Positions 4,519 to 45,788 are shown, counted from the stretch's first letter. The stretch is 64,000 nucleotides of DNA from Candidatus Latescibacterota bacterium (GCA_965217585.1 OZ244561.1:1408001-1472000), one strand, 5' to 3'. The notes: generated from the sequence alone by a model not told the origin. A program made the numbers and translations.

Positions 4519-4960
4519 TTAACCGCCCCACACCCGCCCAATCGCCCCCCGAATCTTCCCCTCCATCCGCTCCACCAACTCCCGATTAGCGGCGACAAGA
4601 GACTGCTCGGCTTCGATTTCGGCGACGATGGCTTGCTGGGTTTCGAGGGGAGGAAGCGGAATCTTGGTCTTGAACAACTGCGACCGGTTAATCTTTGGAA
4701 TGCTTGCTCGCTCGTAGTAATGCTGAATTTGTTTATTGAACGCTTCAGACAGCATATAGTTAGCCAGATAAGAGGCTTGGACTCTCGAATAATTCGGGAT
4801 CAGAGGATACATGTCGGAGCTACTGTATCCATGAAGGTCAACAATAGCCAATTTGTTGAGATATGGGCGAATTTTGCTGTAGAGTAGGCGCTCACCTGAG
4901 AATTCATAGACCGGCCCACTGACTCCTTGAGCCTGAATCGTCTCCACTTTAACGAGCTTA
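4519..4960 (-). pseudogene. hsdS: 3' part (second TRD and C-terminal conserved region) of the IS-split HsdM-HsdS fusion
   Basis: LLYSKIRPYLNK and KIPLPPLETQQAIVAEIE; rejoins 5893-7943 in frame when the IS and one TTA copy are removed. Confidence 0.9.
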
Positions 4961-5892: not shown

Positions 5893-7943
5893 TTACCAGT
5901 ATTCGATTCTATACTGTCAGCTCCAAAGTAAGGACATAGGGGATCCACTTCCTTGGTAATACTTCCACCGATCTTACACAACGCCCCCAACTCTACCATC
6001 GGCCACTCAGGATCAACCACAATCTGCGGCCGATAGTTGTCAATCACCGCCCGCGCCCCGTCTATCACCCGCTGATACCCCTCAATCTCCGCCACAATCT
6101 CCCGCTGCACCTCCAACGGCGGCAGGGGAATTTGGATTTCTGACAACTGTCCTTTTGTGACACCTTGTATTGTTGAACCCTGACTAACTTTTTTAAAGTT
6201 TTCGACTCTATCCTTGAGAACGTACACAAGGTAATCTGCATTAACCGCATCTTTCAAAATTAGTCCTTGAGAATCTTGGCTTATGCAAACGTCGAAATCA
6301 TTCCTGAATAATTTTCCCAGTCCAACTCTTGTTACAACTATGACATTCCCTTTTTTGATTAAGTTAGTGGCTGATTCGCTTATGGCTTCTTCTGTGATGT
6401 ATTTCCGCGGTTTTGCTGTCTTGACATTCACGATGTCTGCACTTGTAATCCATGGAATATCGCCGTTCCAGTAGGCTTCATTCTTTGTTGAAGGTGTACC
6501 ACCGCTCAAAATATCATCGCAAACATCCCCCAATTCCACCATCGGCCACTTCATACTGGCGTAATTAGTCGTTTCCCGGTACCTTTCCCCGCTCAGATTA
6601 TACTCCCCTCCCCCCGTAATCTTCTCCTTCTCGGCGACCAGCCCCAGCGTGGCCGTGTACTCCACTTTAGGTTCCGCCACACCATCGCTCGTCACCGACT
6701 CCCCCGCCCGTAGCTGCCCCAGATACTCGCCAAGCTCCTCCCTCACCTGCGGCAAGTCATTCTCCGCAATCTCCCGCCGCTGCGCCCCCAAACCAAACCC
6801 ATCGTTCTCCACCTTAAAAAAGGCAATGCGATCCGTCTTTTGCGCCAGCGCCTTGTCCAGCAGCAGAATGGATGTCTTGACCCCCGAATAGGGCTGGAAC
6901 ACGCCCGCCGGCAGCGAGATAACAGCCACCAGATAATTCTCCACCAGCATCTTGCGTAGCTGCTTATGGGCGGTCTGGCTCTGAAAGACAATGCCCTCCG
7001 GCACAATGATACCGGCGCGCCCCGTAGGCGTCAGATGCTCGGCCATGTAATCGACAAACAGCACTTCGCTGCGTTTGGATTGCACCGAAAAGCGGCGATG
7101 CGGACGAATGCCGCCCTTCGGCGACATAAACGGCGGATTGGCCAAAATCACGTCGGCATACTCGTTCCAGCGCTCCTCGCTGGTCAGGGTGTCGTACTCG
7201 GAGATATGCGGCTCGACAAAGCCGTGCAGATACAGATTCACCAGCGACAGCCGCACCATATCGGGCGAGATGTCATAGCCCTTGAAATTGGCCGCGAGTG
7301 TCCCCTTTTCATCTGGCGTGAGCGTACTATTGCCCTCGTCGTCGATATTGGCCTTGAGAATATGCTTGTACGACGAAATCAGGAACCCGGCAGTGCCACA
7401 GGCCGGGTCGAGAATAGTTTCGTCTTTCTTCGGATCAACAACGGCGACAATGAAGTCGATGATATGGCGCGGAGTGCGGAATTGCCCAGCGTCCCCCTGC
7501 GAGCCAAGAACCGAGAGCAGATATTCAAAAGCATCGCCGAGCCGCTCGCTGTGATCGTACGTAAACTCGTCAATGACCTTGAGAAAGGCGCGCAAAGTCT
7601 CCGGGTCGCGGTAGGGCAAATAGGCGTTGTTGAAGATGTCGCGGAACAGCGGCGGAATGCCCGGATTTTCCGGCATCCGGGTGATCGCCTCGGCGTACAG
7701 ATTCAAGGTCTCGTGGCCGCCCAAGCCAGCGCGCACCAGTTGAGGCCAGCCATAGCGGGCAAAGTCGCCGGCAAAAAACGTGCGCTGCCCGCCCAACTCC
7801 TCGCTCGCGGCGTCAATGTCGTCCATGAACTTGTAGATGAGCGCGATGGTGATTTGCTCCACTTGGCTTTTAGGGTCGGGCACCTTGCCGACGAGAATGT
7901 CGCGGGCCGTGTCAATGCGGCGTTTGGTAGCGGTGTCGAGCAT
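5859..7943 (-). CDS. hsdM: Type I RM N6-methyltransferase fused to specificity subunit (HsdM-HsdS), truncated by IS5 early in TRD2
   Basis: GQFRTPR, LDPACGTAGF, ANPPF, then SGGTPSTK TRD1 and IPLPPLEVQREIV; likely start ATG 7943; stop lies inside the IS. Confidence 0.9.
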   Translation of the reverse strand: MLDTATKRRIDTARDILVGKVPDPKSQVEQITIALIYKFMDDIDAASEELGGQRTFFAGDFARYGWPQLVRAGLGGHETLNLYAEAITRMPENPGIPPLFRDIFNNAYLPYRDPETLRAFLKVIDEFTYDHSERLGDAFEYLLSVLGSQGDAGQFRTPRHIIDFIVAVVDPKKDETILDPACGTAGFLISSYKHILKANIDDEGNSTLTPDEKGTLAANFKGYDISPDMVRLSLVNLYLHGFVEPHISEYDTLTSEERWNEYADVILANPPFMSPKGGIRPHRRFSVQSKRSEVLFVDYMAEHLTPTGRAGIIVPEGIVFQSQTAHKQLRKMLVENYLVAVISLPAGVFQPYSGVKTSILLLDKALAQKTDRIAFFKVENDGFGLGAQRREIAENDLPQVREELGEYLGQLRAGESVTSDGVAEPKVEYTATLGLVAEKEKITGGGEYNLSGERYRETTNYASMKWPMVELGDVCDDILSGGTPSTKNEAYWNGDIPWITSADIVNVKTAKPRKYITEEAISESATNLIKKGNVIVVTRVGLGKLFRNDFDVCISQDSQGLILKDAVNADYLVYVLKDRVENFKKVSQGSTIQGVTKGQLSEIQIPLPPLEVQREIVAEIEGYQRVIDGARAVIDNYRPQIVVDPEWPMVELGALCKIGGSITKEVDPLCPYFGADSIESNTGKRLSENSIFSI

Positions 7944-7944
7944 A

Positions 7945-8835
7945 TTAGGTCCGATAAACGAATTCTGCCCCAATCTTCCACACCCCCTTCTCCCGAAAAG
8001 CGGGAATGGTCTGGCGACGGGCAGCGTTGGTGACTGCGGGTGCCGAGAGCCCATGCTGTTTGATATAATCCGACAGCCGGATAATGGCCTCCCCCTGTAA
8101 ATAACTCAGCCTCTTGTGCAGCGACTCTACGAGCGCCAACGCCATAATATCTTCCATCGTCCTAGTCGTTTGGCGGTCCCCATAGTCCCTGAACGCCTGA
8201 TAATACCGCTCCTTTTCCGAGTTGCGAATAATAAGACGCGGCAGTCCGAGCTGGATAAGTTGAAAATTGATGAGAATTCGCCCCAAGCGGCCATTGCCGT
8301 CGCAAAAGGGATGGATGGTCTCAAAATCCAAGTGAAATCGGGCAATTTTATCGAGGAAGTAGGTGCCGAGATCGCTGGAATACTCGACGAGGATGTCATC
8401 TATCATGCGCTCGACATGCTCGGGTGCCGGCGCAATATGAGTCCCCACCCGCACGTATTCCCCCTGCTCTCGAAAGCGTCCGGCGATGGCATCATTAATG
8501 CCGCCGATAAGCATCTGATGCAAAAGTAGTATCAGATCTTTGCTCAACTCACTGTCTTTAGCTTTGGTCCGTTTGTATTCCGTGACGCGGGCTAGATTTT
8601 TCGCCTCGAAGACTTCCTGCACAGACACATTTCGGGACAACATCTGGTCCAACAGGATTTTCTCTGTCTCCTCAAGAGTAAGGGTTGAATTCTCAATCGC
8701 GTTCGAGTTGTACACGCTCTCAGGGATCTCCACTTCGTCGATCATCGACAGCAGCGATTCCTTGCCTTGGCGCAAGGTATCGTACGCTCGTTTCAAGCCT
8801 TGGATGCGGCTTCTTATCGGCTCTGTGGTCGCCAT
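7945..8835 (-). CDS. Fic-family protein
   Basis: HPFCDGNGRLGR Fic motif; SNAIEN; start probably ATG 8835. Confidence 0.9.
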   Translation of the reverse strand: MATTEPIRSRIQGLKRAYDTLRQGKESLLSMIDEVEIPESVYNSNAIENSTLTLEETEKILLDQMLSRNVSVQEVFEAKNLARVTEYKRTKAKDSELSKDLILLLHQMLIGGINDAIAGRFREQGEYVRVGTHIAPAPEHVERMIDDILVEYSSDLGTYFLDKIARFHLDFETIHPFCDGNGRLGRILINFQLIQLGLPRLIIRNSEKERYYQAFRDYGDRQTTRTMEDIMALALVESLHKRLSYLQGEAIIRLSDYIKQHGLSAPAVTNAARRQTIPAFREKGVWKIGAEFVYRT

Positions 8836-8841
8836 ATCATT

Positions 8842-8870
8842 ATTGTATCGCATTCACGGTATATTGGCAA
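8842..8870 (-). promoter_or_regulatory. Sigma70-type promoter for fic-hsdMS, probably leaderless
   Basis: TTGCCA-17 nt-TACAAT, with the ATG 6 nt downstream of the -10 box and no Shine-Dalgarno. Confidence 0.65.
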
Positions 8871-9005
8871 ATATCCGTGAATGAACCGGGAAAAATGGAT
8901 GCCATTCACGGTTTTTTCGGATAAAGACGTTAATCGCGGATTAGAAATCCGGATTGGTGATCTTGCATGTGGCGCTACGGAGCCTCGGGAACAAGCATTC
9001 CAGAT

Positions 9006-9329
9006 TCACCAGCGCAACCCTTTCCTGCGCGCCCACTTCAGCCAATCTTGGGTCATCTCTGCGACAACGCCCCGATGATCGGGAAGCACGGGATCTTCTC
9101 GTGCAATCGACCTAAGTGCCCAAAACCAGTGTTCCGGCTTGTGTTCGAGTTCTCTAAGAATCAACGGCAGCGCTGGCGGCCCCATGCCTATGATCTGCTG
9201 ATACGCAGGATGTAGAACGATCTCTCGTACTGAGGAAAAATGAGCGCATTCCTCACGTACAATTTCTGCGAGACGGTGGAACTGTTCTGGCAGGACATCT
9301 GGCTGGGGCTGTGGGAACTCCGTACTCAA
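9006..9329 (-). CDS. Conserved hypothetical protein
   Basis: 107 aa, HPAYQQIIGMG...HWFWALRSI...DPV...WLKW; GGAG upstream of the TTG start. Confidence 0.65.
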   Translation of the reverse strand: MSTEFPQPQPDVLPEQFHRLAEIVREECAHFSSVREIVLHPAYQQIIGMGPPALPLILRELEHKPEHWFWALRSIAREDPVLPDHRGVVAEMTQDWLKWARRKGLRW

Positions 9330-9396
9330 AGCTTCACTCCCATATCAAAAAGGCTCGATAGCTGAATCTTCACGGCTCGAACGTCGTGTACCCTTT

Positions 9397-11934
9397 CTAG
9401 ACGGTGAATTGGTTCAAGGACACGTAATCCTTGACATACTCGGGAACGAGCCTGCGGTACGGCTCCGGCACCGCGCGAAAGTCGCGGGAGGAAAAGGCCG
9501 AATTGGTTGCCAGCTCGGCAAAGCTCCGATTCTCAATGATGTCTCGGGTCTGTCCGCTGGTCAGGTACGCCTTGAAGTACGCCCTGATCGCCGCGATAGA
9601 CTCGGCCTCGTCGGGCTTGTAATCGGCGACAAATTTGGCGAACTCCTCTTCGAGCAGCTCGTCCCTAGACTTAAAACGCGGGATGAGATCAAAGACTTTC
9701 TCCAGTATCTCGCGCAAGGTTACGCGACGATCCACCGCAGCGGCTTGGCGCAGCTTGGTGAGGGTGTAGTACTCCTCGGGCTTGTCGAAAACTTCCTGAT
9801 TCACATAGTCGATGGCGCGATCCCATTGGCCCGCCTCGATAGCTTGGGCAATGAAGTCGTTGTCGCGCACCTCGTCGGCAAAGCGGTCGAAGAACATCCG
9901 ATCAATTCTCATCCCCTCGGAGCCGACCTGCTCTTGCTCGATCGTCGATAGGAAGTCGCTTCCCAAGTGCTCGTAGGTGCCGGCATATACAACCGGCCTT
10001 GGATCGTCCCCGTCCTCTCTACCTCTATCTCGCAGCCGAGGCAATTCCAATATCTCGTCGTAGTTGAACTCGTTCTCGAAGTATTGGCAGTTGCCGAAGA
10101 AGTCGAACAGCTTGAAGGTGGTCTTCTCCGGCTCAGCGACAACGTCTGTGGGGCGGTGCCCTATCATCTGGTCGAGGAAGTTGTGCTTTCTGGTGCCGCG
10201 CCCCTTGATCTGGACGAAATCCGTCGGCGAGAATATCGGCCTGAACAGGCCCAAATTAAGAATGTCGGTGCAGTCGTAGCCAGTGGTCATCATGCCAACA
10301 GTTACGCATACTCTCGCCTTGCTCGTCCGGTACTCGCGCATAAAGTTGCCGGACCCCAAGAGATTGTTGTTGGCAAAGTTGACCGTGAATTGCTGGGCAT
10401 CCCTCACATGCGACGTAACCTGAACCGCAAAATCCGACTGGTACTGGCCCGGAAACATGCGGTCGGCGATCTCGTTGAAGAACTGCGTTAGCTTGGCCGC
10501 GTGCTCTTGGCTTACCGCGAAGACGATGGACTTCCCGATCTCCCCGCTAATCGGATCGCGGAGCGCATTCTCCAAGAAAGTCCGGCAGAAGACCGCGTTG
10601 GTGGCTTCCGAGAAAAACTCCCGCTCGAAATCGCGTTTTTTGAACGCTTCCTCCTGCTGCTCTCCTTCGTCATCAGTGAAAGACACCACAAAGCCCTTAT
10701 CGGCGAGAAGCTGGGTGGTCACCTCCGTTCGTGCGTCAACGACCCGAGGGTTGATCAGATGCCCATCGCGCACCCCATCGCGCAGTGAGTAGCGGAACGT
10801 CGGCTCGCCACTCTCGCAGCCGAAGGTGCGGTAGGTATCGAGCAACAACCGGCGCTCCACCTCGCGCGGGTCGCGCACATGCGGGCCGCTCGCATGGGTG
10901 CCTCTGAGGTAGTCTCGGGGCGTAGCGGTCAGCCCCAGCTTGTACCCAACGAAGTAATCGAACACGGCGCGGGCGTTGCCGCTGATGGACCGGTGCGCCT
11001 CATCCGAAATCACCAAGTCGAAGTCCGTCGGCGAAAACAGCGACTGGTACTTGTTGTTGAACAGCAGCGACTGAACGGTCGTGACCACAATGTGCGCTCG
11101 ACGCCAGTCATCGCGTTTCTCCTTGTAGATGACCGTGTCAAAGTCGTTCGCCAAGTACGGGACAAACGACTTGCTCGCCGCTTGGTCTTCTAACTCCAGC
11201 CGATCTACCAAGAAGAGGACGCGGCGGGCGTTGCCAGTGCGGAGAAACAGCTTGATAACAGCGGCGGCCACTAGCGTCTTGCCGGTGCCGGTAGCCATCT
11301 CGAACAGGAATCGGTCGCGTCCGTCTCGGACCGCCCGCTGCAAACCGTGGATCGCTCGTAGCTGGTAATCGCGCAAAAAGCGCAGGCCGTGCGTCTGGAT
11401 GTATCCGAAACGCTCGGCCTCGTTGCGCCATCCAGCCTCCGCCGCATAGCTAGGCCGCTGCGTGAGGACGATATAGTCGTCGCCAACTTGCTCATCGATC
11501 AGGCGCTGTGAGTTAGGCTCGACCTGTTTGTACCCTTCCACCGAATCCGGCGATGGGAACGCCGTAATGATATGCGGATTGCCGCGTTCTAGGTCCCAGA
11601 AGTAGTGCAGATTGCCGTTGGAGAGGATGACGAAGCGGCAGTTCAGCGAGCGGGCGTAGCGGCGGGCCTGCTCCTTACCGACCAACGGGTCTTTGTCCTC
11701 GGACTTGGCCTCCAACACGATCAACGGAAAACCCCGGTCGTCGAGGAGCAGGAAATCGACAAATCCTCGACCGGAACGCTCAAAATTATCGCCTAAGCTG
11801 TCGAGGTCGTCGCGTTTGAGGGCGACATGCGCCTCCAAGCGGATATTGGCCCGTCCATTGTCGTCGTCGAAGAATCGCCAACCAGCGCTTTCAAGCAACT
11901 GGTCGATTTTATGCCGAGCAACAGCCTCGCTCAT
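9397..11934 (-). CDS. hsdR: Type I restriction endonuclease R subunit (SF2 helicase/translocase)
   Basis: VDFLL...LEAK nuclease motif, MATGTGKT, DEAH, LTATP, QIKGRGTR. Confidence 0.92.
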   Translation of the reverse strand: MSEAVARHKIDQLLESAGWRFFDDDNGRANIRLEAHVALKRDDLDSLGDNFERSGRGFVDFLLLDDRGFPLIVLEAKSEDKDPLVGKEQARRYARSLNCRFVILSNGNLHYFWDLERGNPHIITAFPSPDSVEGYKQVEPNSQRLIDEQVGDDYIVLTQRPSYAAEAGWRNEAERFGYIQTHGLRFLRDYQLRAIHGLQRAVRDGRDRFLFEMATGTGKTLVAAAVIKLFLRTGNARRVLFLVDRLELEDQAASKSFVPYLANDFDTVIYKEKRDDWRRAHIVVTTVQSLLFNNKYQSLFSPTDFDLVISDEAHRSISGNARAVFDYFVGYKLGLTATPRDYLRGTHASGPHVRDPREVERRLLLDTYRTFGCESGEPTFRYSLRDGVRDGHLINPRVVDARTEVTTQLLADKGFVVSFTDDEGEQQEEAFKKRDFEREFFSEATNAVFCRTFLENALRDPISGEIGKSIVFAVSQEHAAKLTQFFNEIADRMFPGQYQSDFAVQVTSHVRDAQQFTVNFANNNLLGSGNFMREYRTSKARVCVTVGMMTTGYDCTDILNLGLFRPIFSPTDFVQIKGRGTRKHNFLDQMIGHRPTDVVAEPEKTTFKLFDFFGNCQYFENEFNYDEILELPRLRDRGREDGDDPRPVVYAGTYEHLGSDFLSTIEQEQVGSEGMRIDRMFFDRFADEVRDNDFIAQAIEAGQWDRAIDYVNQEVFDKPEEYYTLTKLRQAAAVDRRVTLREILEKVFDLIPRFKSRDELLEEEFAKFVADYKPDEAESIAAIRAYFKAYLTSGQTRDIIENRSFAELATNSAFSSRDFRAVPEPYRRLVPEYVKDYVSLNQFTV

Positions 11935-14862: not shown

Positions 14863-15327
14863 TCACACCGCCGAGGCTGCCAGTATCTCTTCCGGCGTTC
14901 GATCCGGCGAGTCAAACGGATTGACCACCCGAACCGCGCCGAACTCTTGGCCGTGCTGCAGGTCCTCGGTCAGCAGAACCTTGCACTCGCAGGTCTGCGC
15001 GGCGGCGATGATGAGCGCGTCCCACCAAGACAAGGGAAAGCGGTCCTGCAAGAGCCAAGCTCGTTTCAGCATCGCTAGGTCAACGGCTACCGGTTGCCAC
15101 ACTGCCAGTTCCCGTACGATTAATCGGGCCTCTGCCACATCGACCTTCAGCCGCCGCTTGCTTGTGAGGGTGGAGTAGAGTTCCTGCAGAACCTGAAAAC
15201 TCACGCGACCAGAGCGGCCACGTACGAGCAGCGAGATCCACTCGTCCGCGCGAGTTTTCTTTTGGGGTTCCGAGTCGTCGTGCAGATAGACGAATACGTT
15301 GGTGTCAACGAAGACCGGGCCGGTCAT
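14863..15327 (-). CDS. PIN-domain (VapC-like) toxin
   Basis: FVDTNVFVY, QVLQE, SWWDALI, LLTEDLQHG. Confidence 0.9.
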   Translation of the reverse strand: MTGPVFVDTNVFVYLHDDSEPQKKTRADEWISLLVRGRSGRVSFQVLQELYSTLTSKRRLKVDVAEARLIVRELAVWQPVAVDLAMLKRAWLLQDRFPLSWWDALIIAAAQTCECKVLLTEDLQHGQEFGAVRVVNPFDSPDRTPEEILAASAV

Positions 15328-24239: not shown

Positions 24240-25250
24240 CTATTGTGCAGGGGCCAAGTTATTCAAGCAGAGTGGAGTTTCGACGTTCGAACGGATGAAG
24301 GCGATATGATCATTCTGTCCTGGCTTGATGTCACGCGCATTATCTAGGGGCACAACAATCGTCCCCCCACAACAGCGATGGTCCGCGCGGCCCAATGCAA
24401 AGGCACTACTCAAATGCGACATCGATCCTGATGGCTCAGTCTTAGAGCAGTGCTCTGACAGTTGCGTACATACGATTCTGGCACTGGGCATGATCTCTCG
24501 CAAGACGCTAATGATCTCAGGATTTGGAGCACCGTAACGCCCGCGACCAAAGGAAAAGATCACAGTTATAGGCTCTACGGCTTCAAGTAGCCTCTCAGTG
24601 AAGGAGCGAATGTCCGCTGCACCCGGACGACCTCCATGATGTGGGTAGACCAAAATGGGTATCTTCAGGTCCATATTTTGCATCAGCAGATCGTCTAGTC
24701 CAATTCCGTCGATGTCTGCGGGCAGAATGGCCACGTGCTTGCCGGACACGCTTATCCGTATCACCGCACTGATAGAATTGCTAGTGATCCTCCTCCCTGA
24801 TCCGTTTTTATTACCTACGCCCTTCAGGGCTAAATAAGGGCTTGGAGCCATTACCCGAATCTCTATATCGCCAAAATTCTCGCCCTTCCCCGAGACCAAG
24901 CCGACATCAAGCTGCAAAGTACCAGCCATGTGCGCGCTGTTCAGCTCGTAAGCTAAGTCATTCCAGATCTCAGTATCCTTCAAAGCGTCATTGTTGAGCA
25001 CAACTCTGTCTATAGTCACTATACCCGACGCCAACAACCCAACAAGGGCACCGATGTGGTCCTCGTCAGCATGAGATAGGTAAACTGTCCGAATTCTCTT
25101 GATGCATTGCTGGTCCAAGAACTCCAGAAGCCCACTGCGACGCCCAACATCAACGACAACCACTTCGGTATCTCCCACGACTACAGTGCAGCTTCCATGA
25201 CCAACATCGAGAATGTACAGATGACGTCGTAGCTTGCTCACGGCATTCAC
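24240..25250 (-). CDS. ComEC/Rec2-like metallo-beta-lactamase-fold hydrolase (putative nuclease)
   Basis: LDVGHGSC, SHADEDHIG, NSISAV, PHHGG; GTG overlaps the upstream TGA. Confidence 0.85.
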   Translation of the reverse strand: MNAVSKLRRHLYILDVGHGSCTVVVGDTEVVVVDVGRRSGLLEFLDQQCIKRIRTVYLSHADEDHIGALVGLLASGIVTIDRVVLNNDALKDTEIWNDLAYELNSAHMAGTLQLDVGLVSGKGENFGDIEIRVMAPSPYLALKGVGNKNGSGRRITSNSISAVIRISVSGKHVAILPADIDGIGLDDLLMQNMDLKIPILVYPHHGGRPGAADIRSFTERLLEAVEPITVIFSFGRGRYGAPNPEIISVLREIMPSARIVCTQLSEHCSKTEPSGSMSHLSSAFALGRADHRCCGGTIVVPLDNARDIKPGQNDHIAFIRSNVETPLCLNNLAPAQ

Positions 25251-25909
25251 TTGGATTCCCAATCATCGAAGAACAGATCCTCGTGGCTCTCTGCACCGAT
25301 GTTAACTAGGGCATGAAATCTTCTACCGGGCTCGACAAGATCGCGTATCTCATCCGAAAGACTGTCCTCATAGAGCCTTATCTTTTGTTGAGGGTCCCAC
25401 GCCGGCACAATGGCGTAAAGATACCTGCCCTCTTTATCGACCTCAGCAACTCGGACGAGCGTACGCCGTGGTTTTCTCGTGGAATGGAATGTACCACCGA
25501 TCTCACAGAGCCCCTTGCTCCAAGCCATGGTGAGTGCTTCTGGCTCTGGACTGTTGGTCTTGAGCAGTGCTGGTATGTACCGGAGACAATCGCGACGAAT
25601 TGTCACGTTAACATCAGTAAATGTCGTACAGAGCATTCCTGGTATACCAGCTTTATGACACTCTGCCACGAGAATATCCCCATCGCATTTGGCGTAGTCG
25701 TACTTCTTAAGATGGTAGTCACAGACTACGGCATCTGCTAACTGCTCCGCTTCGGCTACGAACGACTCTGCAGTGTCGACGGGGCCTTCCATCATGACTG
25801 GTTCCAACCCCAAATCCTCGACGGGATACCCGTATCCAACCCGCGCTTCTGGGTCGTCGTCCACAATCATAACTCGACTGATCTTTCTGTTGTGAATCGT
25901 TATCGACAC
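25247..25909 (-). CDS. Receiver-domain protein with a beta-rich C-terminal domain
   Basis: MIVDDD, VVCDYHL (phosphoacceptor Asp), LCTT, LLK; no HTH output domain. Confidence 0.75.
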   Translation of the reverse strand: MSITIHNRKISRVMIVDDDPEARVGYGYPVEDLGLEPVMMEGPVDTAESFVAEAEQLADAVVCDYHLKKYDYAKCDGDILVAECHKAGIPGMLCTTFTDVNVTIRRDCLRYIPALLKTNSPEPEALTMAWSKGLCEIGGTFHSTRKPRRTLVRVAEVDKEGRYLYAIVPAWDPQQKIRLYEDSLSDEIRDLVEPGRRFHALVNIGAESHEDLFFDDWESK

Positions 25910-25911
25910 GG

Positions 25912-27978
25912 TTACGCTCCTAGGATAGGAAGCTCTACAGTAATTACCGCCCCGCCGAGTTCCCCTCTCTCTATGGCGTCCACTTCCCCACCCAAATCCT
26001 TGACTGCATCTCGGACAATCGTAAGTCCAAGGCCGGTCCCGTTCTTGCGCGTGGTACGTCCTGGAAGCCAGATATCGGTCTTCCGTATATCTTGGATTCC
26101 CGGGCCACTATCGTGGACTGTTAGGGTCCAGCGACCTTGTGAAATCGATGTCGAAACCCTAACAACCCTGGCACGTGTACCTCCACTTTCAAAGGCTGCC
26201 ACACTGTTATTCAGGAGATTCGTGAAGATAGACTCGATAGCAGCATCACTCCCCTTCAAGTAGGGTTTCCCTGCATAGAAATCTTTCTGCACAGTAACAT
26301 CTCTTCCTTTAAGAAACGGATCAAAGGTATCCAACACCTCCTGCAATCGCCTATGGAGGTCGACGCGAGAGGCCCTCCGCTTTTCATGGTCAACCAATTT
26401 GAGAGTTGCCGTCCCTAATACAGCCAAGCTCTTCACCGCTCGTCTAATACCATCAACGGGCTGCTGAAGGAATTTGCTATAGTCGTCCTTGAGCAGCTTC
26501 CGGGCCCTCCGAGCAATAGCTTCGACTGACTGCGAAACCACCTTGATCGGATTCCCACTTGACTCGTGAGCAAACGTGACGGCTGTAATTCCAGCGGTGC
26601 TGAGGGTTCTGTATAGTTGTATCTCTTTTTGAAGAAGATCAACTTCGCGGTCCCTTGCAGATTCGTAAGTAGCAAACGCCTGCTCAGTGGTTTTGCGTAA
26701 CTCAGACGGCACATTGGCGATCGCTTTTTCTACTCTACGCCTTGCCACGTCAACTCGTTTCGGAGATGATGTCCGCTCTCGGGAACGCCGCTTCTCCGCC
26801 GCCTCCATCCTCCGATTGGCCATCCACCCCATGGCATCTTGGGCGAACAGACGGAGTTCGATGAAGGATTCATCCTCGATAAATCCAGACCGGTCTGTCT
26901 TCTGGACGAGTCTCTCACGCCTGTCGGTGACATCCACACGTCCAATTGAGGTGTTAGTTCCCGGTCTCTCCTCTGGACTTCGTACGCGTCGGAGATTCAT
27001 CTCCAACCAATCGTCGCCGGGATTGCCATATGGGCTTACTCGCAGGCCATTATAATAAAAGTGGACTCCACCGAATTCGTGCAGCCACTCTTGTACCTCT
27101 TTAACACTCGACCTTCTGGTAGAAAAGGTCTCTTGATTGAGTATGAAGACCCACAAATCGAAGGTTGCAGGCGGACTTTTGTAAGTCTTCTCGTCTCTAT
27201 GTACTGCGATGTCCCTATGACTAGCGACGTAAAGTTCTTGCCCCTTCCAGTCCACAATGCGTGCACTCGCTTGTCCCTCTTTGTCGATTTCCGCCCGCAG
27301 ATGATACTCCGCGTCTTGGAAATACCGACTACGCACGAGAGTCTCTAGATCTTCGTACTCTGGGGCCACTAACTCTGGACGGAATCCTTTTGGATCATCC
27401 CCGAACGGGTCGGCAAGCAGAATTAGTTCCCGGGCCAACCTTTTCACTACCGTCCGACCAAAGCCAGTTCTTAATTCTTCAATCCGGATCTCGGTTCCGG
27501 GCTGGGTTCCCTTCTTCCTCCTTTCAGTCTCCACGTTCAGCTCTACATCATCGACGAGATCAGCCGTATCGAACTCTTCCCAGTCTATGAGCAGACCGTG
27601 CTCAGTAGTCTTCTCTTTCCGTGGGGAAGTCGTCATGAGCGCTCGCTTGCCCATTCGCAGGGCGGCAAGCCTCCCAAGGCCCTTACTACCTGCTGGTATC
27701 CGCCCGAGACGTGTCTTTTGGCGCTGGGTCTTTGTCGATTTACCCAGGACCAGCCACCCATTGGTAATATCATCAACGGTCATTCCATCGCCATTATCCT
27801 TGACGAGAACCATGCCCCCTGCTGCGTCGGTACTTTGCAGCTCAACCTTGCATTTAGTCGCATCTGCGTCGTACGCATTCTTGACAAGCTCAAGCACCCC
27901 CTTGTCTAGGCTCGGATTTAACTCCTCGCCCAAGCGCTTGAGTATCTCAGTTGAAAACCGAATCCGTGCTGTACTCAT
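25912..27978 (-). CDS. MORC/MutL-like GHKL ATPase fused to a histidine kinase
   Basis: N-terminal ELVKNAYDAD, DNGDGM, GSKGLGR, GTEI; C-terminal FAHE (H box), NLLNNS, DSGPGI, GTGLGL; no TM segments seen. Confidence 0.88.
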   Translation of the reverse strand: MSTARIRFSTEILKRLGEELNPSLDKGVLELVKNAYDADATKCKVELQSTDAAGGMVLVKDNGDGMTVDDITNGWLVLGKSTKTQRQKTRLGRIPAGSKGLGRLAALRMGKRALMTTSPRKEKTTEHGLLIDWEEFDTADLVDDVELNVETERRKKGTQPGTEIRIEELRTGFGRTVVKRLARELILLADPFGDDPKGFRPELVAPEYEDLETLVRSRYFQDAEYHLRAEIDKEGQASARIVDWKGQELYVASHRDIAVHRDEKTYKSPPATFDLWVFILNQETFSTRRSSVKEVQEWLHEFGGVHFYYNGLRVSPYGNPGDDWLEMNLRRVRSPEERPGTNTSIGRVDVTDRRERLVQKTDRSGFIEDESFIELRLFAQDAMGWMANRRMEAAEKRRSRERTSSPKRVDVARRRVEKAIANVPSELRKTTEQAFATYESARDREVDLLQKEIQLYRTLSTAGITAVTFAHESSGNPIKVVSQSVEAIARRARKLLKDDYSKFLQQPVDGIRRAVKSLAVLGTATLKLVDHEKRRASRVDLHRRLQEVLDTFDPFLKGRDVTVQKDFYAGKPYLKGSDAAIESIFTNLLNNSVAAFESGGTRARVVRVSTSISQGRWTLTVHDSGPGIQDIRKTDIWLPGRTTRKNGTGLGLTIVRDAVKDLGGEVDAIERGELGGAVITVELPILGA

Positions 27979-29279
27979 GGCTTATACCACCATGGCATCT
28001 CAGCTAAAACTGAGGTCGTTAAGTGCCTACAGCGAAGTCGTCTGTTAAGCCAATTGTCCGTCTTGCTAGACTGAAGGCGTGTTATCAAAGCTCGACAGGT
28101 GTCCTCAGTTCCATCTTTCGGTAGCAACACCATCAGATGGTTTTCTACGGCTACTGCACCTTTACCAAGTACCAGGGTGGCTATCGCACGCTTTCCGCCG
28201 TCCGGCCTTGATGTCCTTCTGATAGCTACGAATGGCGGTTCAAAGAGACGCCCGGTAAATTTTCGCTTCTCCACGATCCGCTTTTGTTCCCCCCACGCGG
28301 GTAAAGAACGTGCGTGGATGTATCGGACTTCTGGACCCACTTCCTCGTGGCGATGTGGCACCACAGGTCCCACATGAACTGCGAATCGTCTGCCAATACC
28401 TCCGGGTTTTCTAGCACTGATTGAGACCCCTGCCTTGCCTCCCTTCTGCTCCCTAGTCTTCAGGAGGTCGAGAAGGTACACATCAACGTCAGCCCATCGG
28501 TCGAACAGGCCGAGCGGGCGCTCTCTACGAATCGCACCCAAAGTGCTGATCATGTTGCGCCAGTGTTCGTAACGACTCCCTGATCGAAGTACGTCCGGCA
28601 GGATTGCGACAATCCTGGTTCCTTCTTGGGAATCTTGAATTGCTCTCTCTGCGAACATTGCCGCAGCGCTGATCCGACCTCGCGCCCATTCGCATTCATC
28701 AGGAGCATGAGTATAACCGAACGGCGGGTTCATGATTACAACGTCAGTACGATACGAACGTTTCGAATGAGATAGGAAGTCGGCCTCGACTATCTTCGGA
28801 AACGTGCGATCAAGCACTAGACTCTCGTCACTGGGACGGACTCCACAACGCTTTGAAGCCAGCAATGCGAGTCTGACCTTCGCCAAACGGACGAAATCCG
28901 AGGAGATGTCGCAGCCAGCTAGGCATCGTCCCCAATGGTCGAGGGTTTCCCTGAACGTGTTGGAAATTGGCAGTTTCTTCGCCACAGCAAGTAGGAGGTC
29001 GCCTGCACCGCACGTTGGGTCGAGATATACTTGTTCGTAGTCCGCACCAACGTCAAGTACCTTTGCTAGCCGCATAGCCATATTGGCACCAGTAAAATAG
29101 GCCCCCTGCTCTTTCAACCGTGAATGATTCTCTTCTCGGCGGAGCATCTCTCCAGGCTCACCGTCTAGGCACATTGTCAGCTTCCGCTGCCACTCGACAG
29201 GCCTAAGAGTCTTTCGTCCCTGGGCTAGCTGCTCAAGCTCGTCAACGTATCGGCGAAATTGTCTCAATGTATTTACCAC
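27975..29279 (-). CDS. DNA amino-methyltransferase (N6-adenine type) with C-terminal TRD-like region
   Basis: GAYFT, LDPTCGAGDLL, MNPPF. Confidence 0.88.
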   Translation of the reverse strand: MVNTLRQFRRYVDELEQLAQGRKTLRPVEWQRKLTMCLDGEPGEMLRREENHSRLKEQGAYFTGANMAMRLAKVLDVGADYEQVYLDPTCGAGDLLLAVAKKLPISNTFRETLDHWGRCLAGCDISSDFVRLAKVRLALLASKRCGVRPSDESLVLDRTFPKIVEADFLSHSKRSYRTDVVIMNPPFGYTHAPDECEWARGRISAAAMFAERAIQDSQEGTRIVAILPDVLRSGSRYEHWRNMISTLGAIRRERPLGLFDRWADVDVYLLDLLKTREQKGGKAGVSISARKPGGIGRRFAVHVGPVVPHRHEEVGPEVRYIHARSLPAWGEQKRIVEKRKFTGRLFEPPFVAIRRTSRPDGGKRAIATLVLGKGAVAVENHLMVLLPKDGTEDTCRALITRLQSSKTDNWLNRRLRCRHLTTSVLAEMPWWYKP

Positions 29280-29645
29280 ACTCGGGTTTAGATACTCGAA
29301 GGATACGGCTACAAGGGTACCTACTTGAAATCGACAGGTTTCGACCTACACGTTCTCGTAATTCTTTGTTCAACAGTATGTTAGAGTTGGAAATCGTTGA
29401 AAGCGTGAACCCACTGATTGCATTATGTTTACGAAGTTACCTTCGCACTCCGCAAGCCGCAAGGTATTTCGCCTGCCGCTCGATCTCTTGAAGCAGTTCC
29501 CTCCTATACTTCTTGCGCCAAGACGCAGTAAGGCTGACGGACTTTGCGGCTCCACAAACTTGTTTACTGCGGAATATTAGTCAAGATATCCGGTATTTAT
29601 GCGAGGCCCTATACCCGTCCACTGAATTCGCGTCTCCCGACCAGC

Positions 29646-33103: not shown

Positions 33104-34489
33104 ATGAACTTAGAAGAATTCCAAATTCACAATAGCCATCTCGACGGCACCTTTTCCGACCTCGACCCGCACCTCAGACGCCTGCGCGATCAGCCCCTAA
33201 TCTATCGCTTTCCCCTCCTCGACCGCCTGCCGCGCAACCAGCCAGGCATTTACACTGTGGGCGGGGGCCGCCAGATTGGCAAGACGACCCTACTCAAACA
33301 GTGGATGGCCGACCTGCTGGCAACCGGCCTTGACCCAGCCCGTCTGCGCTTTTTCACCGGTGAACTCATCGACGATCACCACGCGCTAGTGCGCTTGGTA
33401 TCGACTCTACTGCGAGAAATGCCCACCGAGGACCGGCGCTATGTCCTGCTCGACGAAGTGACCTATATCGCCGGTTGGGACAAGGGGATCAAGTACCTCG
33501 CCGACGCCGGCTTACTCGAAGGCGTCGTGCTCATTGCGACCGGCTCGGACATGGCGGTCATCCAAGAGGCCCGCATGCGTTTTCCCGGCCGCAGAGGGCA
33601 AGCCGCGGCCGTTGACTTTCACCTCCATCCCCTCAGCTTTGCCGCGGCCGTGGGGCTAAAGCGCTCGCTGAGCAACCAAGAGTTGCTACAATTAGCACAG
33701 CCTAGATCGCCGCTATCCGCAGAAACCGAGCAAGTCCTGCGCGAGGAATTTCTCGCCTATCTAGTCCACGGCGGCTTTCTCACCGCCATTAACGATATGG
33801 CCCGCCACGACCGCATCCTCCCGGCCACATTCGCCACGTACAGCGACTGGATACGCGGCGATATGCTCAAACGCGGCAAGCAGGAACACTATTTGGGCGA
33901 AGTGCTGGCCGCCATTGTCCGCTGCTGCGGCACCCAGACCACTTATAACGCCTTGGCCCGCACACTCAGCATAGACCATCCCGCTACCGTGAGCGACTAT
34001 GTCGCCCTGCTCACCTCTATGGATGTCCTCCGCGTCCAGCCGGCCCTGCGCGAGGACAAGCTGACCGGTGCGCCGAAAAAGGCACGCAAAATCAGCTTTT
34101 GCGATCCCTTCATTTTTCACGCCGTGCAAAGCTGGCTGCACGCGGCGCAGGACCCTTTCGCCGCCCAAGTGCGCCCCCTCCTCGCCGACCCCGAGCGCAC
34201 CGCCCCCTTAGTAGAAGCCTGCGCCGTTGCCCATTATAGCCGTCGCTATCCCACCTACTATATCAAAGGCGAGGGCGAAGTGGATATCGCCTATGTAAAA
34301 GACGGTCGTTTTTGGCCCGTGGAAATCAAGTGGACGGGCCAGTTGCGGCCTAAGACGCTCAAACAGATAGGCAAGTACGCCAACAGCCGCGTCCTCGCCC
34401 GCCGGAGTGCGCCGGCGAGAATAGGAGATATTCCCGTCGAGTTCCTGCCCCAGACCCTGTTGCGCCTAGACCTAGAGGCGCGGCCTTAA
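33104..34489 (+). CDS. AAA+ ATPase (AAA_14 / DUF4143 type) with C-terminal PD-(D/E)xK-like motif
   Basis: GGRQIGKTT, LLDEV, ATGS, HGGF, EVDI...VEIKW. Confidence 0.88.
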   Translation: MNLEEFQIHNSHLDGTFSDLDPHLRRLRDQPLIYRFPLLDRLPRNQPGIYTVGGGRQIGKTTLLKQWMADLLATGLDPARLRFFTGELIDDHHALVRLVSTLLREMPTEDRRYVLLDEVTYIAGWDKGIKYLADAGLLEGVVLIATGSDMAVIQEARMRFPGRRGQAAAVDFHLHPLSFAAAVGLKRSLSNQELLQLAQPRSPLSAETEQVLREEFLAYLVHGGFLTAINDMARHDRILPATFATYSDWIRGDMLKRGKQEHYLGEVLAAIVRCCGTQTTYNALARTLSIDHPATVSDYVALLTSMDVLRVQPALREDKLTGAPKKARKISFCDPFIFHAVQSWLHAAQDPFAAQVRPLLADPERTAPLVEACAVAHYSRRYPTYYIKGEGEVDIAYVKDGRFWPVEIKWTGQLRPKTLKQIGKYANSRVLARRSAPARIGDIPVEFLPQTLLRLDLEARP

Positions 34490-43323: not shown

Positions 43324-43483
43324 GTCTTAGAAAAATCCCAGGGGTGGCCCCGCAAAACAGGTTGACCCAACCCTGAAGAAGCTACTCTTGGCGTTTGGAC
43401 AATGGCAAGGGGAAACTGGGCGAGAGCGCTCGGTTGTGGACAATTGCTTTTCCAATCCGCTCTTATCCTTACATTATAGGTCT

Positions 43484-44290
43484 ATGACCGCTATGACCGC
43501 TATGACCGCAGACCAAAAGACGCTGGTGCCCTCGCCTCGCGAAGAGCGCAACCAGCAGCTAGCGCACTACCTCCGCGACCTCGCTCTAGAGCAGATGCCC
43601 GCCGAGGACCTTTTGCGCTGGGCCAGCGAGACCTTTCCCGGCCGGGCCGTACTCAACACCAGCTTCCAGTACACCGGGGTTGCGATGATCCACATGGCGT
43701 CGTCTATGGGGCTGGATCTGCGCTTTGCCACCATCGACACCCTCCGGCTCCATCCCGAGACGTACGCCTTTATGGAGGAAGTCAAAGCGCACTACGGCTG
43801 CCACTTTGAGATCGTCCGGCCTAAAAGCGGCGATGTCGAGCGGATGGTCGCACGTCACGGCGAGTATTTGTTTTTCGACTCCAAGGAAAAACAGGAGCAC
43901 TGTTGCCAAGTGCGGAAGGAATGGCCCAACAACGCGCTGTTGCAGACGGTCGATTGCTGGATCTCGGGGCAGCGTTGGGACCAGTCCGAGCATCGCCAGC
44001 AAACGGCGAAAAAGGCGACTTTGATTGACGAGTACGGCACCCGACGCAAAGTACTCAAGCTCAATCCGTTGGTGGACTGGAGCGAAGAAGCGCTGATGGA
44101 GTTTACGCGGGCAAACGACCTGCCGGTCCATCCGCTCTACGGCCAAGGCTACCCGAGCTTTGGCTGCATCATCTGCTCCACCCCAATCCAGCCCGACGAA
44201 CACAAGCGCAACGGTCGCTGGCGTTGGTTCAACGAACAAACCGATGTCGCGGACGACCGCAAAGAGTGCGGGCTGCACTACAACATCTGA
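43484..44290 (+). CDS. cysH: APS/PAPS reductase with Fe-S cysteines (APS-reductase type)
   Basis: TSFQ, IDTLRLHPETY, CCQVRK, GYPSFGCIIC, ECGLH; start is one of three tandem ATGs at 43484, 43493 or 43502. Confidence 0.9.
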   Translation: MTAMTAMTADQKTLVPSPREERNQQLAHYLRDLALEQMPAEDLLRWASETFPGRAVLNTSFQYTGVAMIHMASSMGLDLRFATIDTLRLHPETYAFMEEVKAHYGCHFEIVRPKSGDVERMVARHGEYLFFDSKEKQEHCCQVRKEWPNNALLQTVDCWISGQRWDQSEHRQQTAKKATLIDEYGTRRKVLKLNPLVDWSEEALMEFTRANDLPVHPLYGQGYPSFGCIICSTPIQPDEHKRNGRWRWFNEQTDVADDRKECGLHYNI

Positions 44291-44303
44291 GAGAAACCGC
44301 GCA

Positions 44304-44654
44304 ATGGCCCACACCTTGGAATGGCGCTACCATCGCCCCGGCTGAACAAGCTGCAAGCGCGCACAAGAGTTTCTTGTGCAGAACGGCATTGCCGACGGCA
44401 TCGTGCAGAGTGCGACCAAAGAACCGGTCGCCGGCACGGAAGCCCTCGCCTTGCTAGAGGGCGCGACCGAGCTTTTCGTCGCCCAAGGGCAGCGCGTCCT
44501 CCGCTTCGACCTAGCGTCGCAACGGCCCGCGGACGAGCAATTGCTCCCGCTTCTGTTGGGGCGTTCCGGCAAGCTCCGGGCACCCGCGTTCCGCTGCGGC
44601 ACGCGCCTAATCGTCGGCTACAACCAAGCGCTGCTGCCGCTGGCGTTGGATTAG
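44304..44654 (+). CDS. ArsC-like thioredoxin-fold selenoprotein (UxxC), 116 aa
   Basis: MAHTLEWRYHRPG-TGA(44343)-TSCKRAQEFL...GRSGKLRAP...LIVGYN; hairpin GCACAAGA-GTT-TCTTGTGC downstream of the TGA. Confidence 0.85.
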
Positions 44655-45788
44655 ATGGAGAAAGGTATGTCAACGGTGGAAAATGATGCCTACCTCGATG
44701 AAGAAGAGATCTGTGTCGAAGAAGAGCGGGAGGATCCGAAAGAAAAAATCACAAATCCATTCAATCCTGAGCAGATCAAAATTCGCACCACCCACATCGT
44801 CGTTGAACAGCTTATATCGCGTATCAAGCACAAGGAAATTGATCTAGCACCAGATTTCCAACGACAGGCCGGCATCTGGAACGACGAGCGCAAGAGCCGC
44901 CTCATCGAATCGCTGTTGCTGCGCATTCCCCTCCCGGTATTCTATGTCGCCGCTGACGAGTCTGAAAAGTGGTCAGTCGTCGACGGCATCCAGCGCATGA
45001 CGACCATATATGACTATGTGACGGGCAAGTTCCCGCTTAAACGACTTGAATATCTAACCAAACTCAACGGATGTACGCACGACGAGCTGCGGAGGCCATT
45101 GCAGCGACGAATCAGTGAAACCCAACTCATCGTCAACATCATAGAGTCGGGTACTTCACCGGACGTGCTGTTCAATGTCTTTCGACGTATCAATACAGGT
45201 GGAATGACGTTGAATGGACAGGAAATACGCCATGCACTGAACCCAGGTCCAGTTCGGGATTATCTGAAGGAACTCGCCGAATCCGACGAGTTCAAAAAAG
45301 CCACGGACGGTAGCATCAATCCAAAACGGATGGCTGATCGGGAATGCGTACTGCGATTCCTCGCTTTCCATATCACTCCGTGGGAAAACTATTCCTCCAG
45401 CGATCTCAATGGCTACCTTGTACGCACTATGCAGGAAATCAACTACATGAGTGAGTGTGAGCGAAACAACTTCGCTGTTGATTTCAGGAGAGCAATGTTA
45501 GCGGCATTCGACATATTCGGTGAGAATGCATTCCGCAAACCACCTAACGACCGCCGACCTCCAATTAATAAGGGCATTTTTGAGGCGTGGAGCGTTCAGT
45601 TGGCGCGTTGTCTGCCAGAGCAGATAAGAGTGCTTGTCGAACGGCGGAATGACATCCAATGTTGTTTCAAAAAACTGATAGCAGAAGACAGCGATTTCCT
45701 AGAGGCCATCTCCTATGCTACTGGATCACCACAAAACGTACAGAAGCGATTTCAAGCAATTGAGCAACTTGTCAAGGAGTTCGTCTGA
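44655..45788 (+). CDS. DUF262 (ParB-like) protein, Menshen NsnA-like
   Basis: PDFQR, SRLIESLLLRIPLP, VVDGIQR, FRRINTGG, QEIRHA; start may be 44667. Confidence 0.88.
   Translation: MEKGMSTVENDAYLDEEEICVEEEREDPKEKITNPFNPEQIKIRTTHIVVEQLISRIKHKEIDLAPDFQRQAGIWNDERKSRLIESLLLRIPLPVFYVAADESEKWSVVDGIQRMTTIYDYVTGKFPLKRLEYLTKLNGCTHDELRRPLQRRISETQLIVNIIESGTSPDVLFNVFRRINTGGMTLNGQEIRHALNPGPVRDYLKELAESDEFKKATDGSINPKRMADRECVLRFLAFHITPWENYSSSDLNGYLVRTMQEINYMSECERNNFAVDFRRAMLAAFDIFGENAFRKPPNDRRPPINKGIFEAWSVQLARCLPEQIRVLVERRNDIQCCFKKLIAEDSDFLEAISYATGSPQNVQKRFQAIEQLVKEFV

Follow-up and report, generated by a model that had tools for sequence, protein, structure and literature searches.

Locus and gene content

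We analyzed a 64,000-nucleotide stretch of a Candidatus Latescibacterota bacterium genome (GCA_965217585.1 OZ244561.1:1408001-1472000; hereafter the window, with positions counted from its first letter), focusing on a four-gene block on the minus strand at 24240-29279. Open reading frame (ORF) calling placed there, in order of transcription, genes for a DNA methylase (P0001), a kinase (P0002), a receiver protein (P0003), and a metallo-beta-lactamase (MBL)-fold hydrolase (P0004). The methylase and kinase genes overlap in an ATGA (27975-27978), the kinase and receiver genes are separated by a 2-nt gap (TAA-cc-GTG; gap at 25910-25911), and the receiver and MBL genes overlap in a GTGA (25247-25250). 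The GC content was 0.51-0.54 over 24.0-29.5 kb, compared with 0.60-0.65 on either side. These positions, junctions, and the lower-GC block had been reported in a first-pass annotation made by a model from the sequence, and each was confirmed. In alignments of each family, all four active sites were intact and invariant among relatives. The features of the cassette are as follows.

29280-29645 (minus strand): presumed operon promoter region, 366 nt of AT-richer intergenic DNA upstream of the methylase gene (from gene layout)
27975-29279 (minus strand): gamma-class N6-adenine DNA methyltransferase, 434 aa (Pfam, family profile, conserved motifs)
26884-27978 (minus strand): N-terminal MORC/paraMORC-like GHKL ATPase and transducer-like middle domain of the kinase, approximately residues 1-365, a putative DNA-clamp sensor (Pfam, NCBIfam, Foldseek)
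25912-26883 (minus strand): coiled-coil/DHp and catalytic (CA) domains of a histidine kinase, approximately residues 366-688 (Pfam, NCBIfam, Foldseek)
25499-25909 (minus strand): receiver (REC) domain, fold at approximately residues 10-137 (AlphaFold2, Foldseek, family Pfam matches)
25250-25492 (minus strand): C-terminal small beta-barrel of the receiver protein, residues 140-220, predicted to dock on the MBL (AlphaFold2 model, complex prediction)
24240-25250 (minus strand): standalone ComEC-type MBL-fold hydrolase, 336 aa, a putative Mn/Zn-dependent DNase effector (Pfam, NCBIfam, family profile)

The cassette is flanked by a DMFA2-like gene on one side and a MacB/ABC transporter operon on the other, and neither an integrase nor a tRNA gene was found adjoining it. 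No ORF lies between the methylase gene and the ABC-transporter gene; hence, the window cassette has no XRE/HipB-like regulator gene. A consensus scan of 29280-29645 gave no convincing minus-strand promoter, and the sites from the promoter and terminator scan were no more numerous than in shuffled sequence.

Domain architecture of the four proteins

The kinase (688 aa; gene 25912-27978, minus strand) contains two GHKL modules, as the first-pass annotation had proposed: Pfam matched HATPase_c_3 at residues 25-126 (9e-21) and HATPase_c at residues 580-685 (1.5e-21). In NCBIfam, its first 185 residues matched NF050001, the N-terminus of the BbrUII/HgiDII restriction enzymes (1.2e-20), and residues 447-685 matched AtoS-, PhoR-, and BaeS-type kinases. 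The AlphaFold2 model, which was of moderate confidence (mean pLDDT 72.8), comprised a GHKL domain, an alpha/beta middle domain, long helices, and a CA domain. Foldseek matched the N-terminal half of this model to MORC2, MORC3, SMCHD1, and Hsp90 over 444-534 columns (E 2e-12 to 3e-10), and its C-terminal half to CpxA, ZraS, and HK853. The match of the modeled fold extended across both N-terminal domains and the motifs were invariant, suggesting the paraMORC-type layout of a GHKL domain with ATP-binding motifs followed by an S5-type transducer.

Among 25 kinase homologues, the invariant positions included E30, N34, D61, G63, G65, and G97-G102 of the N-terminal GHKL domain and, in the kinase half, H471-E472 (H box), N587/N591 (N box), D623/G625/G627 (G1), and G647/G649/G651 (G2). 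The putative phospho-acceptor, H471, is encoded at 26566-26568. None of the 25 kinases had a HisKA match in Pfam, and no transmembrane segment was noted in the protein, which is described as soluble. The family is large and spans many phyla: at least 3365 homologues of the kinase were found at E≤1e-3 among 8000 candidates scored, the best 120 of which were 603-713 aa long with 63-100% identity. Its N-terminus also matched a protein annotated as ParaMORC3 in an Escherichia phage.

The receiver protein (220 aa; gene 25247-25909, minus strand) had no Pfam match at E≤0.1 itself, and Response_reg (PF00072) was matched by 42 of 65 family members (best E 4.1e-5). Its AlphaFold2 model (pLDDT 94.9) showed a REC domain and, C-terminal to it, a barrel made of five strands and a single short helix (order: b-b-b-short helix-b-b), and Foldseek matched the model to NtrX, FixJ, PrrA, and CheY-like receivers (E 4e-5 and weaker). 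The first-pass annotation had listed a DD pair, a phospho-acceptor Asp, a Thr, and a Lys. All 65 sequences had the acidic residues D17, D18, and D64, as well as T or S at position 95, but the Lys was not conserved: position 117 was K in 14 of 65 and R in 17 of 65, and a basic residue occupied position 106 in 63 of 65. Judged from the alignments, all the canonical two-component residues would thus be present and invariant in the kinase and receiver except the receiver Lys. The putative phospho-acceptor, D64, is encoded at 25718-25720.

The output of the receiver had been described as beta-rich rather than helix-turn-helix (HTH), and the model agrees; no HTH or LytTR match was found in the 65 family members. 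No Pfam family covered this family-specific barrel in P0003 or these members. A profile search of the PDB gave no significant natural relative of the barrel, returning two engineered proteins (1.1e-5) and noise, and the ComEC OB fold was absent from the results; Foldseek with the receiver model returned REC-domain matches only, leaving the barrel unclassified, and an ESM Atlas search with the barrel gave nothing usable. The barrel profile had 1361 representatives at E≤1e-3, and among the best 150, nearly all were proteins of approximately 215-240 aa with a C-terminal barrel, or shorter fragments. Exceptions without REC among these were P0364, P0297, and P0253: a 204-aa protein carries the barrel twice in tandem, a 383-aa protein has three barrel-matched stretches, apparently tandem copies, and in a 242-aa protein a single barrel follows an unrelated N-terminal part. 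Fused receiver-MBL or receiver-effector forms were found neither among the best 150 barrel matches (longest 383 aa) nor among the best 120 MBL matches (longest 395 aa).

The MBL protein is 336 aa long from GTG at 25250 and 340 aa long from TTG at 25262; its closest database homologues are 336 aa, and we therefore favour the GTG start. It matched Lactamase_B in Pfam (2e-9) and ComEC/Rec2 TIGR00361 in NCBIfam (1.2e-8), and its family profile matched the solved ComEC chains 9ic4, 30bt, 9vcb, and 9vcf (E 2.5e-19 to 4.3e-19). The ComEC-like character and intact HxDxDH motif noted in the first-pass annotation were upheld: H60-x-D62-x-D64-H65 (336-aa numbering; codons at 25056-25073) was invariant in 65 of 65 sequences. 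Also invariant in all 65 were D179, H204, H205, C261, C268, and C328, and C293/C294 were nearly so. In the alignment to 9ic4 and 30bt, the protein carries the residues expected of a ComEC-type enzyme, namely the H-x-D-x-D-H motif, a downstream putative metal-binding Asp, and PHHG. The Cys-rich C-terminal region (residues 261-328; approximately 24267-24470) lies outside the range of the ComEC MBL alignment, and its composition suggests a metal-binding module; an ESM Atlas search with this tail gave unnamed clusters (best score 0.87) and nothing usable.

The methylase carries motif I as DPTCGAGD and motif IV as NPPF (codons 28719-28730). It matched N6_Mtase (8.6e-7) and Eco57I (8e-4) in Pfam, and its family profile matched HsdM, M.BseCI, and BpuSI (E 5e-10 to 4e-6). 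D87, G91, and N184-P185-P186 were invariant in 57 of 57 sequences. Its best PADLOC match was the generic MTase_II (2.1e-15). PADLOC has no model for the kinase, which gave only weak GHKL matches, or for the receiver, which gave none; with only these and weak MBL matches, the proteins of the window cassette corresponded to no named system.

Predicted receiver-MBL complex

Structure prediction placed the receiver and MBL proteins in a complex with ipSAE values of 0.84, 0.83, and 0.83 in three runs, whereas the best of three controls gave 0.00. Contact agreement between runs was 100%, and the pLDDT of the partners was at least 90. In the predicted interface, barrel residues 142-206 face MBL residues 37-43, 63-76, 94-102, 286, and 289, so that the MBL side lies at and just after the H-x-D-x-D-H motif. 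Within the barrel, conservation was higher at interface residues (0.65) than elsewhere (0.44; p=0.002), and five barrel residues that are each at least 91% conserved (R149, W171, R197, N203, and G205) fall within the interface. A His-to-Asp relay acting on the MBL, as the first-pass annotation had envisaged, would fit such a complex. Because the barrel is predicted to sit beside the metal-binding motif, we favour direct control of the nuclease by phosphorylation over transcriptional control.

The ComEC MBL domain is a Mn-dependent DNase whose catalysis uses the variant of H-x-D-x-D-H seen here; according to the accessible text of that study, the isolated domain has negligible DNA affinity, and its rate rises approximately seven-fold with any tethered small DNA-binding domain (PMC12455585). 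Since the ComEC domain gains from such a tethered partner, an analogous role for the docked barrel is plausible.

Conservation, distribution, and mobility

We searched species-representative genomes for relatives; 133 of 171 candidate stretches encoded one, and 80 loci were kept. In 56 of the 80 loci, the four genes were all intact and ran co-linearly on one strand, and the 4-nt methylase-kinase overlap was present in 44 of these 56. A chance arrangement is excluded because the gene order recurs in these 56 loci. By tblastn, the receiver and the MBL were each found in 76 of 80 loci, the misses being contig ends or one disrupted locus. The other 24 loci comprised three with an inverted methylase, two with an SNF2 helicase, four with neither methylase nor helicase upstream, and 15 that were contig-cut or had broken, rearranged, or out-of-range genes; approximately 10 of the 80 loci had broken genes. 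Among 790 flank ORFs, no family occurred in more than four loci, and the one that reached this number was the displaced methylase; the unit therefore consists of the four genes only, with no conserved fifth gene. No regulator gene recurred in the 80 loci (only L069 has an HTH_3 neighbour), no HNH gene was found in the cassette or recurring in the flanks, and no second receiver gene recurred in the flanks. The reported absence of a classical restriction endonuclease held for the window and, as a conserved neighbour, across the 80 loci.

The methylase was the least constant member. With the window protein as query, tblastn found it, in adjacent position, in 73 of 80 loci; it was on the opposite strand in three (L074, L078, and L079). 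In two loci (L011 and L020), an SNF2 helicase takes the place of the methylase beside intact kinase, receiver, and MBL genes, and four (L025, L029, L068, and L070) have the same three genes intact with neither methylase nor helicase upstream; L029 carries only an unrelated M.Eco57I-like methylase, downstream. Over the 56 complete loci, identity to the window proteins co-varied tightly between kinase and receiver (rho 0.93), kinase and MBL (0.90), and receiver and MBL (0.92), and less so between the methylase and the other three (0.71-0.75), with the caveat that these loci are mutually related, so the points are not independent.

The SNF2-family helicase (928-1150 aa) heads the cassette in two Spirochaetia loci (L020:4552-8004 and L011:5185-7971), and in L020 its gene overlaps the kinase start by 4 nt. 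Another locus (L030:4686-8001) differs from the rest in having a shortened methylase gene (378 aa) approximately 2.2 kb away from the kinase gene, which may reflect an insertion; a TIR-STAND NTPase is encoded downstream.

According to record titles, relatives occur in Latescibacterota, Gemmatimonadota, Acidobacteriota, Spirochaetota, Rhodothermales, Bacteroidota, Chloroflexota, Planctomycetota, Verrucomicrobiota, Actinomycetota, Cyanobacteria, Armatimonadota, and several proteobacterial classes, giving a patchy distribution over a dozen or more phyla. Plasmid copies with 43-51% identity are present in the cultured bacteria Burkholderia sp. IDO3, B. aenigmatica, Hymenobacter volaticus, and Pseudanabaena. 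On plasmid p1 of Burkholderia sp. IDO3, the one plasmid neighbourhood inspected, the genes are annotated as methylase, ATP-binding protein, response regulator, and MBL fold hydrolase, and lie beside ParDE. Integrases, transposases, or a relaxase flank six loci. The cassette is horizontally mobile and travels as a unit. In the chromosome of a Ca. Latescibacterota metagenome-assembled genome (L001), the cassette shows 80-92% protein identity and has the same MacB and DMFA2-like neighbours as in the window, and its insertion therefore predates the split of the two genomes.

We scanned 132 of 144 nearest-neighbour ORFs, the 12 left out being already-scanned ORFs, the three inverted methylases, and one long ORF. 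Credible PADLOC defence matches were obtained for 13 of the 132, and five more were ambiguous; the credible ones were to type IIG restriction-modification (R-M), SspE, Cas1, AbiEi (twice), HmaC, HEC-01, PDC-S02, PDC-S15, C-protein, and methylases. Pfam added TIR-STAND, DUF4420, three integrases, two DDE transposases, and a TrwC relaxase. In a phage collection, six records had any match, two of them near full-length but distant and located on unannotated short contigs.

Relation to known systems

The closest likeness is to Ambrosia (AbrR-AbrA-AbrB-AbrC-AbrD) of Pseudomonas aeruginosa, an anti-phage system described in a preprint as an XRE regulator, an N6 methylase, a kinase/HATPase protein, a receiver with a winged HTH (wHTH), and an HNH protein (bioRxiv 10.1101/2025.09.30.679545). 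According to its accessible text, all catalytic mutants and the receiver mutant D60A lose defence, AbrA methylation gives phage no protection, the system does not behave like conventional R-M, and 76% of occurrences are in Pseudomonadales. Set against AbrA-D as described there, the window cassette shares the order of N6-adenine methylase, histidine kinase/HATPase, receiver, and nuclease, with the methylase at its head. It differs in its effector, which is a ComEC-type MBL rather than a type IV-like HNH, in having no XRE/HipB-like regulator gene, in its receiver, which ends in a beta-barrel predicted to bind the nuclease rather than in a wHTH, and in its occurrence in many phyla as opposed to mainly Pseudomonadales. 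The first-pass annotation knew of no characterized system with this composition; given the phage-validated Ambrosia, with the same methylase-kinase-receiver-nuclease logic, this statement is outdated.

An Ambrosia layout outside Gammaproteobacteria was seen on plasmid P2 of Deinococcus gobiensis (L085; locus 2904-8517), which encodes an HTH regulator, an Eco57I-type methylase, a double-HATPase kinase, a 215-aa protein with no Pfam match, and an HNH endonuclease. Its kinase is homologous to P0002 over 98% of the length, including both HATPase domains (23% identity, E 6e-43), and its methylase is weakly similar to P0001 (22% over 192 aa, E 2e-5). The protein in the receiver position gave a BLASTP E of 0.65 and an hhalign probability of 8% against P0003, with nothing beyond a weak REC signal. 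More widely, tblastn aligned at least 90% of P0002 with homologous plasmid kinases (23-28% identity, E 1e-19 to 6e-43), which lie in Dcm/Vsr contexts (B. glumae and Rhizobium gallicum) and in an Ambrosia-like context (D. gobiensis P2).

The pairing of such a kinase with a receiver near R-M genes is not new either, having been described as HEF_HK / Response_reg_2: HATPase_c_3 + DHp + HATPase_c proteins are paired with receiver-like proteins in 644 regions, which are enriched for type II R-M genes, C5 methylases, Vsr, and HNH_2, and descent from paraMORC was proposed (Bellieny-Rabelo et al. 2021, PMC8011034). The window cassette likewise has a soluble HATPase_c_3 + DHp + HATPase_c kinase next to a gene for a receiver-like protein that has DD, D, and T but no known output domain, in an R-M setting. 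The partners in that study, as far as its accessible text goes, are mainly C5-cytosine methylases, Vsr, and HNH_2. At E≤1, PF19191 and PF19192 matched none of the 25 kinases or 65 receivers, and four comparator plasmid kinases from Dcm/Vsr/HNH contexts and their partners were likewise matchless at 1e-3; these models may be absent from the Pfam copy or narrow.

The paraMORC GHKL ATPases are reported to be linked to methylases, nucleases, and SNF2/SF2 helicases and to be sporadic and laterally transferred; paraMORC1 has HNH partners and is extended at its C-terminus by a conserved region (Iyer, Abhiman and Aravind 2008, PMC2292703). The kinase resembles them in its N-terminal GHKL domain with intact ATP-binding motifs, its transducer-like domain, and its helicase and methylase links, but here the extension is a complete DHp-CA kinase paired with a receiver protein. 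The accessible text of PMC2292703 mentions neither a receiver nor an MBL partner, and that of PMC8011034 mentions no MBL. In Detocs (DtcABC), a kinase activates a receiver-fused effector, the PNP ATP nucleosidase (bioRxiv 10.1101/2023.01.24.525353, as available in part). Detocs would share with the cassette the direct use of a relay from histidine kinase to receiver to switch an immune enzyme rather than transcription. It differs in its fused effector, TPR-based sensor, buffer receiver DtcB, and lack of methylase and nuclease; the window effector is a separate gene, and there is no second receiver gene.

The MBL falls in the same subfamily as the ComEC nuclease domain by profile (approximately 1e-19), with the same H-x-D-x-D-H, Asp, and PHHG residues, and the ComEC nuclease relies on a small neighbouring barrel that binds DNA, an OB fold (PMC12455585). 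Unlike ComEC, the window MBL is soluble and standalone, with no competence channel and with the extra Cys-rich region; its barrel would be supplied in trans by a phosphorylatable receiver and has no sequence similarity to the ComEC OB fold. We found no description of the cassette in the literature searched. It looks like an undescribed variant of the Ambrosia-type and paraMORC-kinase R-M-like systems, and what is new in it is the MBL effector, the predicted barrel adaptor, and the lack of a regulator gene.

Proposed function and alternatives

On balance, we lean toward reading the cassette as a self-contained, mobile R-M-like conflict system, most likely anti-phage or anti-plasmid, with a proposed relay-switched nuclease. 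This reading is supported because Ambrosia, which shares the architecture, has been validated, and because Detocs offers a precedent for the relay. The MORC-like GHKL-plus-transducer ATPase sits where ordinary kinases have their sensor, and its clamp may read a DNA-borne signal; that this signal is unmethylated DNA, as the first-pass annotation suggested, would be a conjecture. The kinase would then autophosphorylate at H471 and pass the phosphate to receiver D64, consistent with their intact, invariant motifs. The receiver, which has no HTH, is predicted to bind the ComEC-like MBL through its C-terminal barrel beside the HxDxDH metal site, and phosphorylation could switch the nuclease at the protein level, either because a barrel that blocks it is released or because a substrate-binding module is brought to an enzyme that binds DNA poorly. 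The N6-adenine methylase would be an accessory, exchangeable module that probably tunes self/non-self discrimination or the clamp signal and is not an obligatory antidote.

A purely post-translational version is more tentative, and we give it a modest chance of being correct: a MORC-type clamp would convert the state of DNA (foreign, unmodified, or broken) to a phosphoryl signal that switches the ComEC-like DNase via the receiver-barrel adaptor at its metal site, with the methylase or SNF2 helicase as interchangeable input. If so, the relay from DNA sensing to cleavage would be a mechanism distinct from both the transcriptional control proposed for Ambrosia and R-M logic, and an Ambrosia-type scaffold would have swapped both its effector and its mode of control. 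If the barrel gates a ComEC-like nuclease, the cassette would offer a simple, testable case in which phosphorylation acts on an immune nuclease through protein contact. It could also open a biochemical route to the signal sensed by MORC-like GHKL clamps, a question that concerns prokaryotic paraMORCs and is relevant to eukaryotic MORCs.

Several points weigh against the favoured reading of a relay-switched conflict system. The anti-phage function and its dependence on the receiver Asp are proposed by analogy with other systems. The ipSAE benchmark, in which 116 of 157 solved complexes and 2 of 215 mismatched pairs scored as high, is only a rough calibration because our own alignments were used, and the score is the model's own confidence. 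MBL residues in the predicted interface were no better conserved than the rest of the MBL (0.49 vs 0.54, p=0.67), and the predictor may recall the ComEC arrangement, with its OB fold beside the MBL domain, from memorized structures. Calling the barrel OB-like follows the order of secondary-structure elements in the model. The MBL profile also weakly matched the phosphorylcholine esterase Pce (6e-8) and the cyclic-nucleotide phosphodiesterase Apyc1 (1.6e-4), and MBL folds also hydrolyse non-DNA substrates. The check for defence neighbourhoods was divided: the credible PADLOC matches in 13 of the 132 ORFs point to defence, but most of these ORFs are housekeeping genes, and the enrichment, a count over these ORFs, is only suggestive. 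Finally, Ambrosia control is proposed to be transcriptional, reporter genes inserted into its cluster being induced by infection (bioRxiv 10.1101/2025.09.30.679545, accessible text).

This working model could hold here too, with the barrel binding DNA and the phosphorylated receiver inducing the methylase and nuclease genes on infection, with no control by protein contact. Beta-rich DNA-binding outputs are known in response regulators (LytTR family), and the conserved Arg and Trp of the barrel would suit such a role. However, the 65 receivers lack any HTH or LytTR match, the conserved residues of the barrel lie in an MBL interface predicted with confidence, the receiver and MBL genes overlap or abut, and the receiver gene lies inside the operon to be induced, with no regulator gene; transcriptional control is thus unlikely in our view. 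We consider it similarly improbable that the cassette is a conventional R-M system in which host DNA is shielded by the methylase and unmethylated DNA is cleaved by the MBL, with no role for the GHKL-kinase and receiver beyond translocation or tuning. The adjacency of the methylase in most loci, its translational coupling to the kinase, and the resemblance of the N-terminal GHKL domain to BbrUII/HgiDII-family restriction enzymes agree with it, as does the proposal that paraMORCs work in R-M systems (PMC2292703, accessible text). The classical type II arrangement, in which a methylase is obligatory beside the nuclease, does not appear to describe the cassette, judging from the six loci with intact kinase, receiver, and MBL genes that lack the cassette methylase. 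Because of these loci, the self-marking role assigned to the methylase in the first-pass annotation is doubtful; the three inverted methylases weaken it as well, and it is further weakened by Ambrosia, where phage grown on the methylase alone stayed sensitive in the available account. Together with the looser co-variation of the methylase, these points ranked a methylase acting as antidote low.

More improbable still is a role outside immunity, either as a selfish addiction or stabilization module of mobile DNA or in DNA-processing or repair signalling from a MutL-like clamp to a ComEC-like nuclease. The plasmid copy beside ParDE, the many chromosomal copies among housekeeping genes, the non-defence roles of ComEC and MutL relatives, and the broken loci, as expected of a dispensable element, are in keeping with such a role. 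Against it stand the patchy cross-phylum distribution, the architecture common to a validated defence system as described, and the recurrence of defence and mobile-element genes among the neighbours.

Other defence-type genes in the window

Elsewhere in the window, a type I-like R-M cluster lies within 5060-11934 (minus strand), comprising N6_Mtase+Methylase_S (5859-8054), Fic/DOC (7945-8853), and ResIII+HSDR_N (9397-11934) genes, with an IS4/5 DDE transposase beside it (5060-5866). A 1191-aa protein at 841-4416 (minus strand) has an N-terminal PIN_12 domain as its sole Pfam match (1.1e-23), and a stand-alone PIN-domain protein is encoded at 14863-15327 (minus strand). On the plus strand, an AAA_14+DUF4143 ATPase gene (33104-34489) lies in a lower-GC patch (0.56-0.57). 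Further along the same strand, PAPS_reduct, GmrSD_N (DUF262), and AAA_15/AAA_21+DUF3696 genes stand in a row at 43388-47080, followed by an unassigned 321-aa ORF, and are possibly a further DNA-modification or restriction module. At 48260-50053 (plus strand), a DarT ADP-ribosyltransferase with a short SSB-like N-terminus is followed by a NADAR-type DarT1 antitoxin (3.1e-81); by its domains, this is a DarT-NADAR toxin-antitoxin or defence pair.

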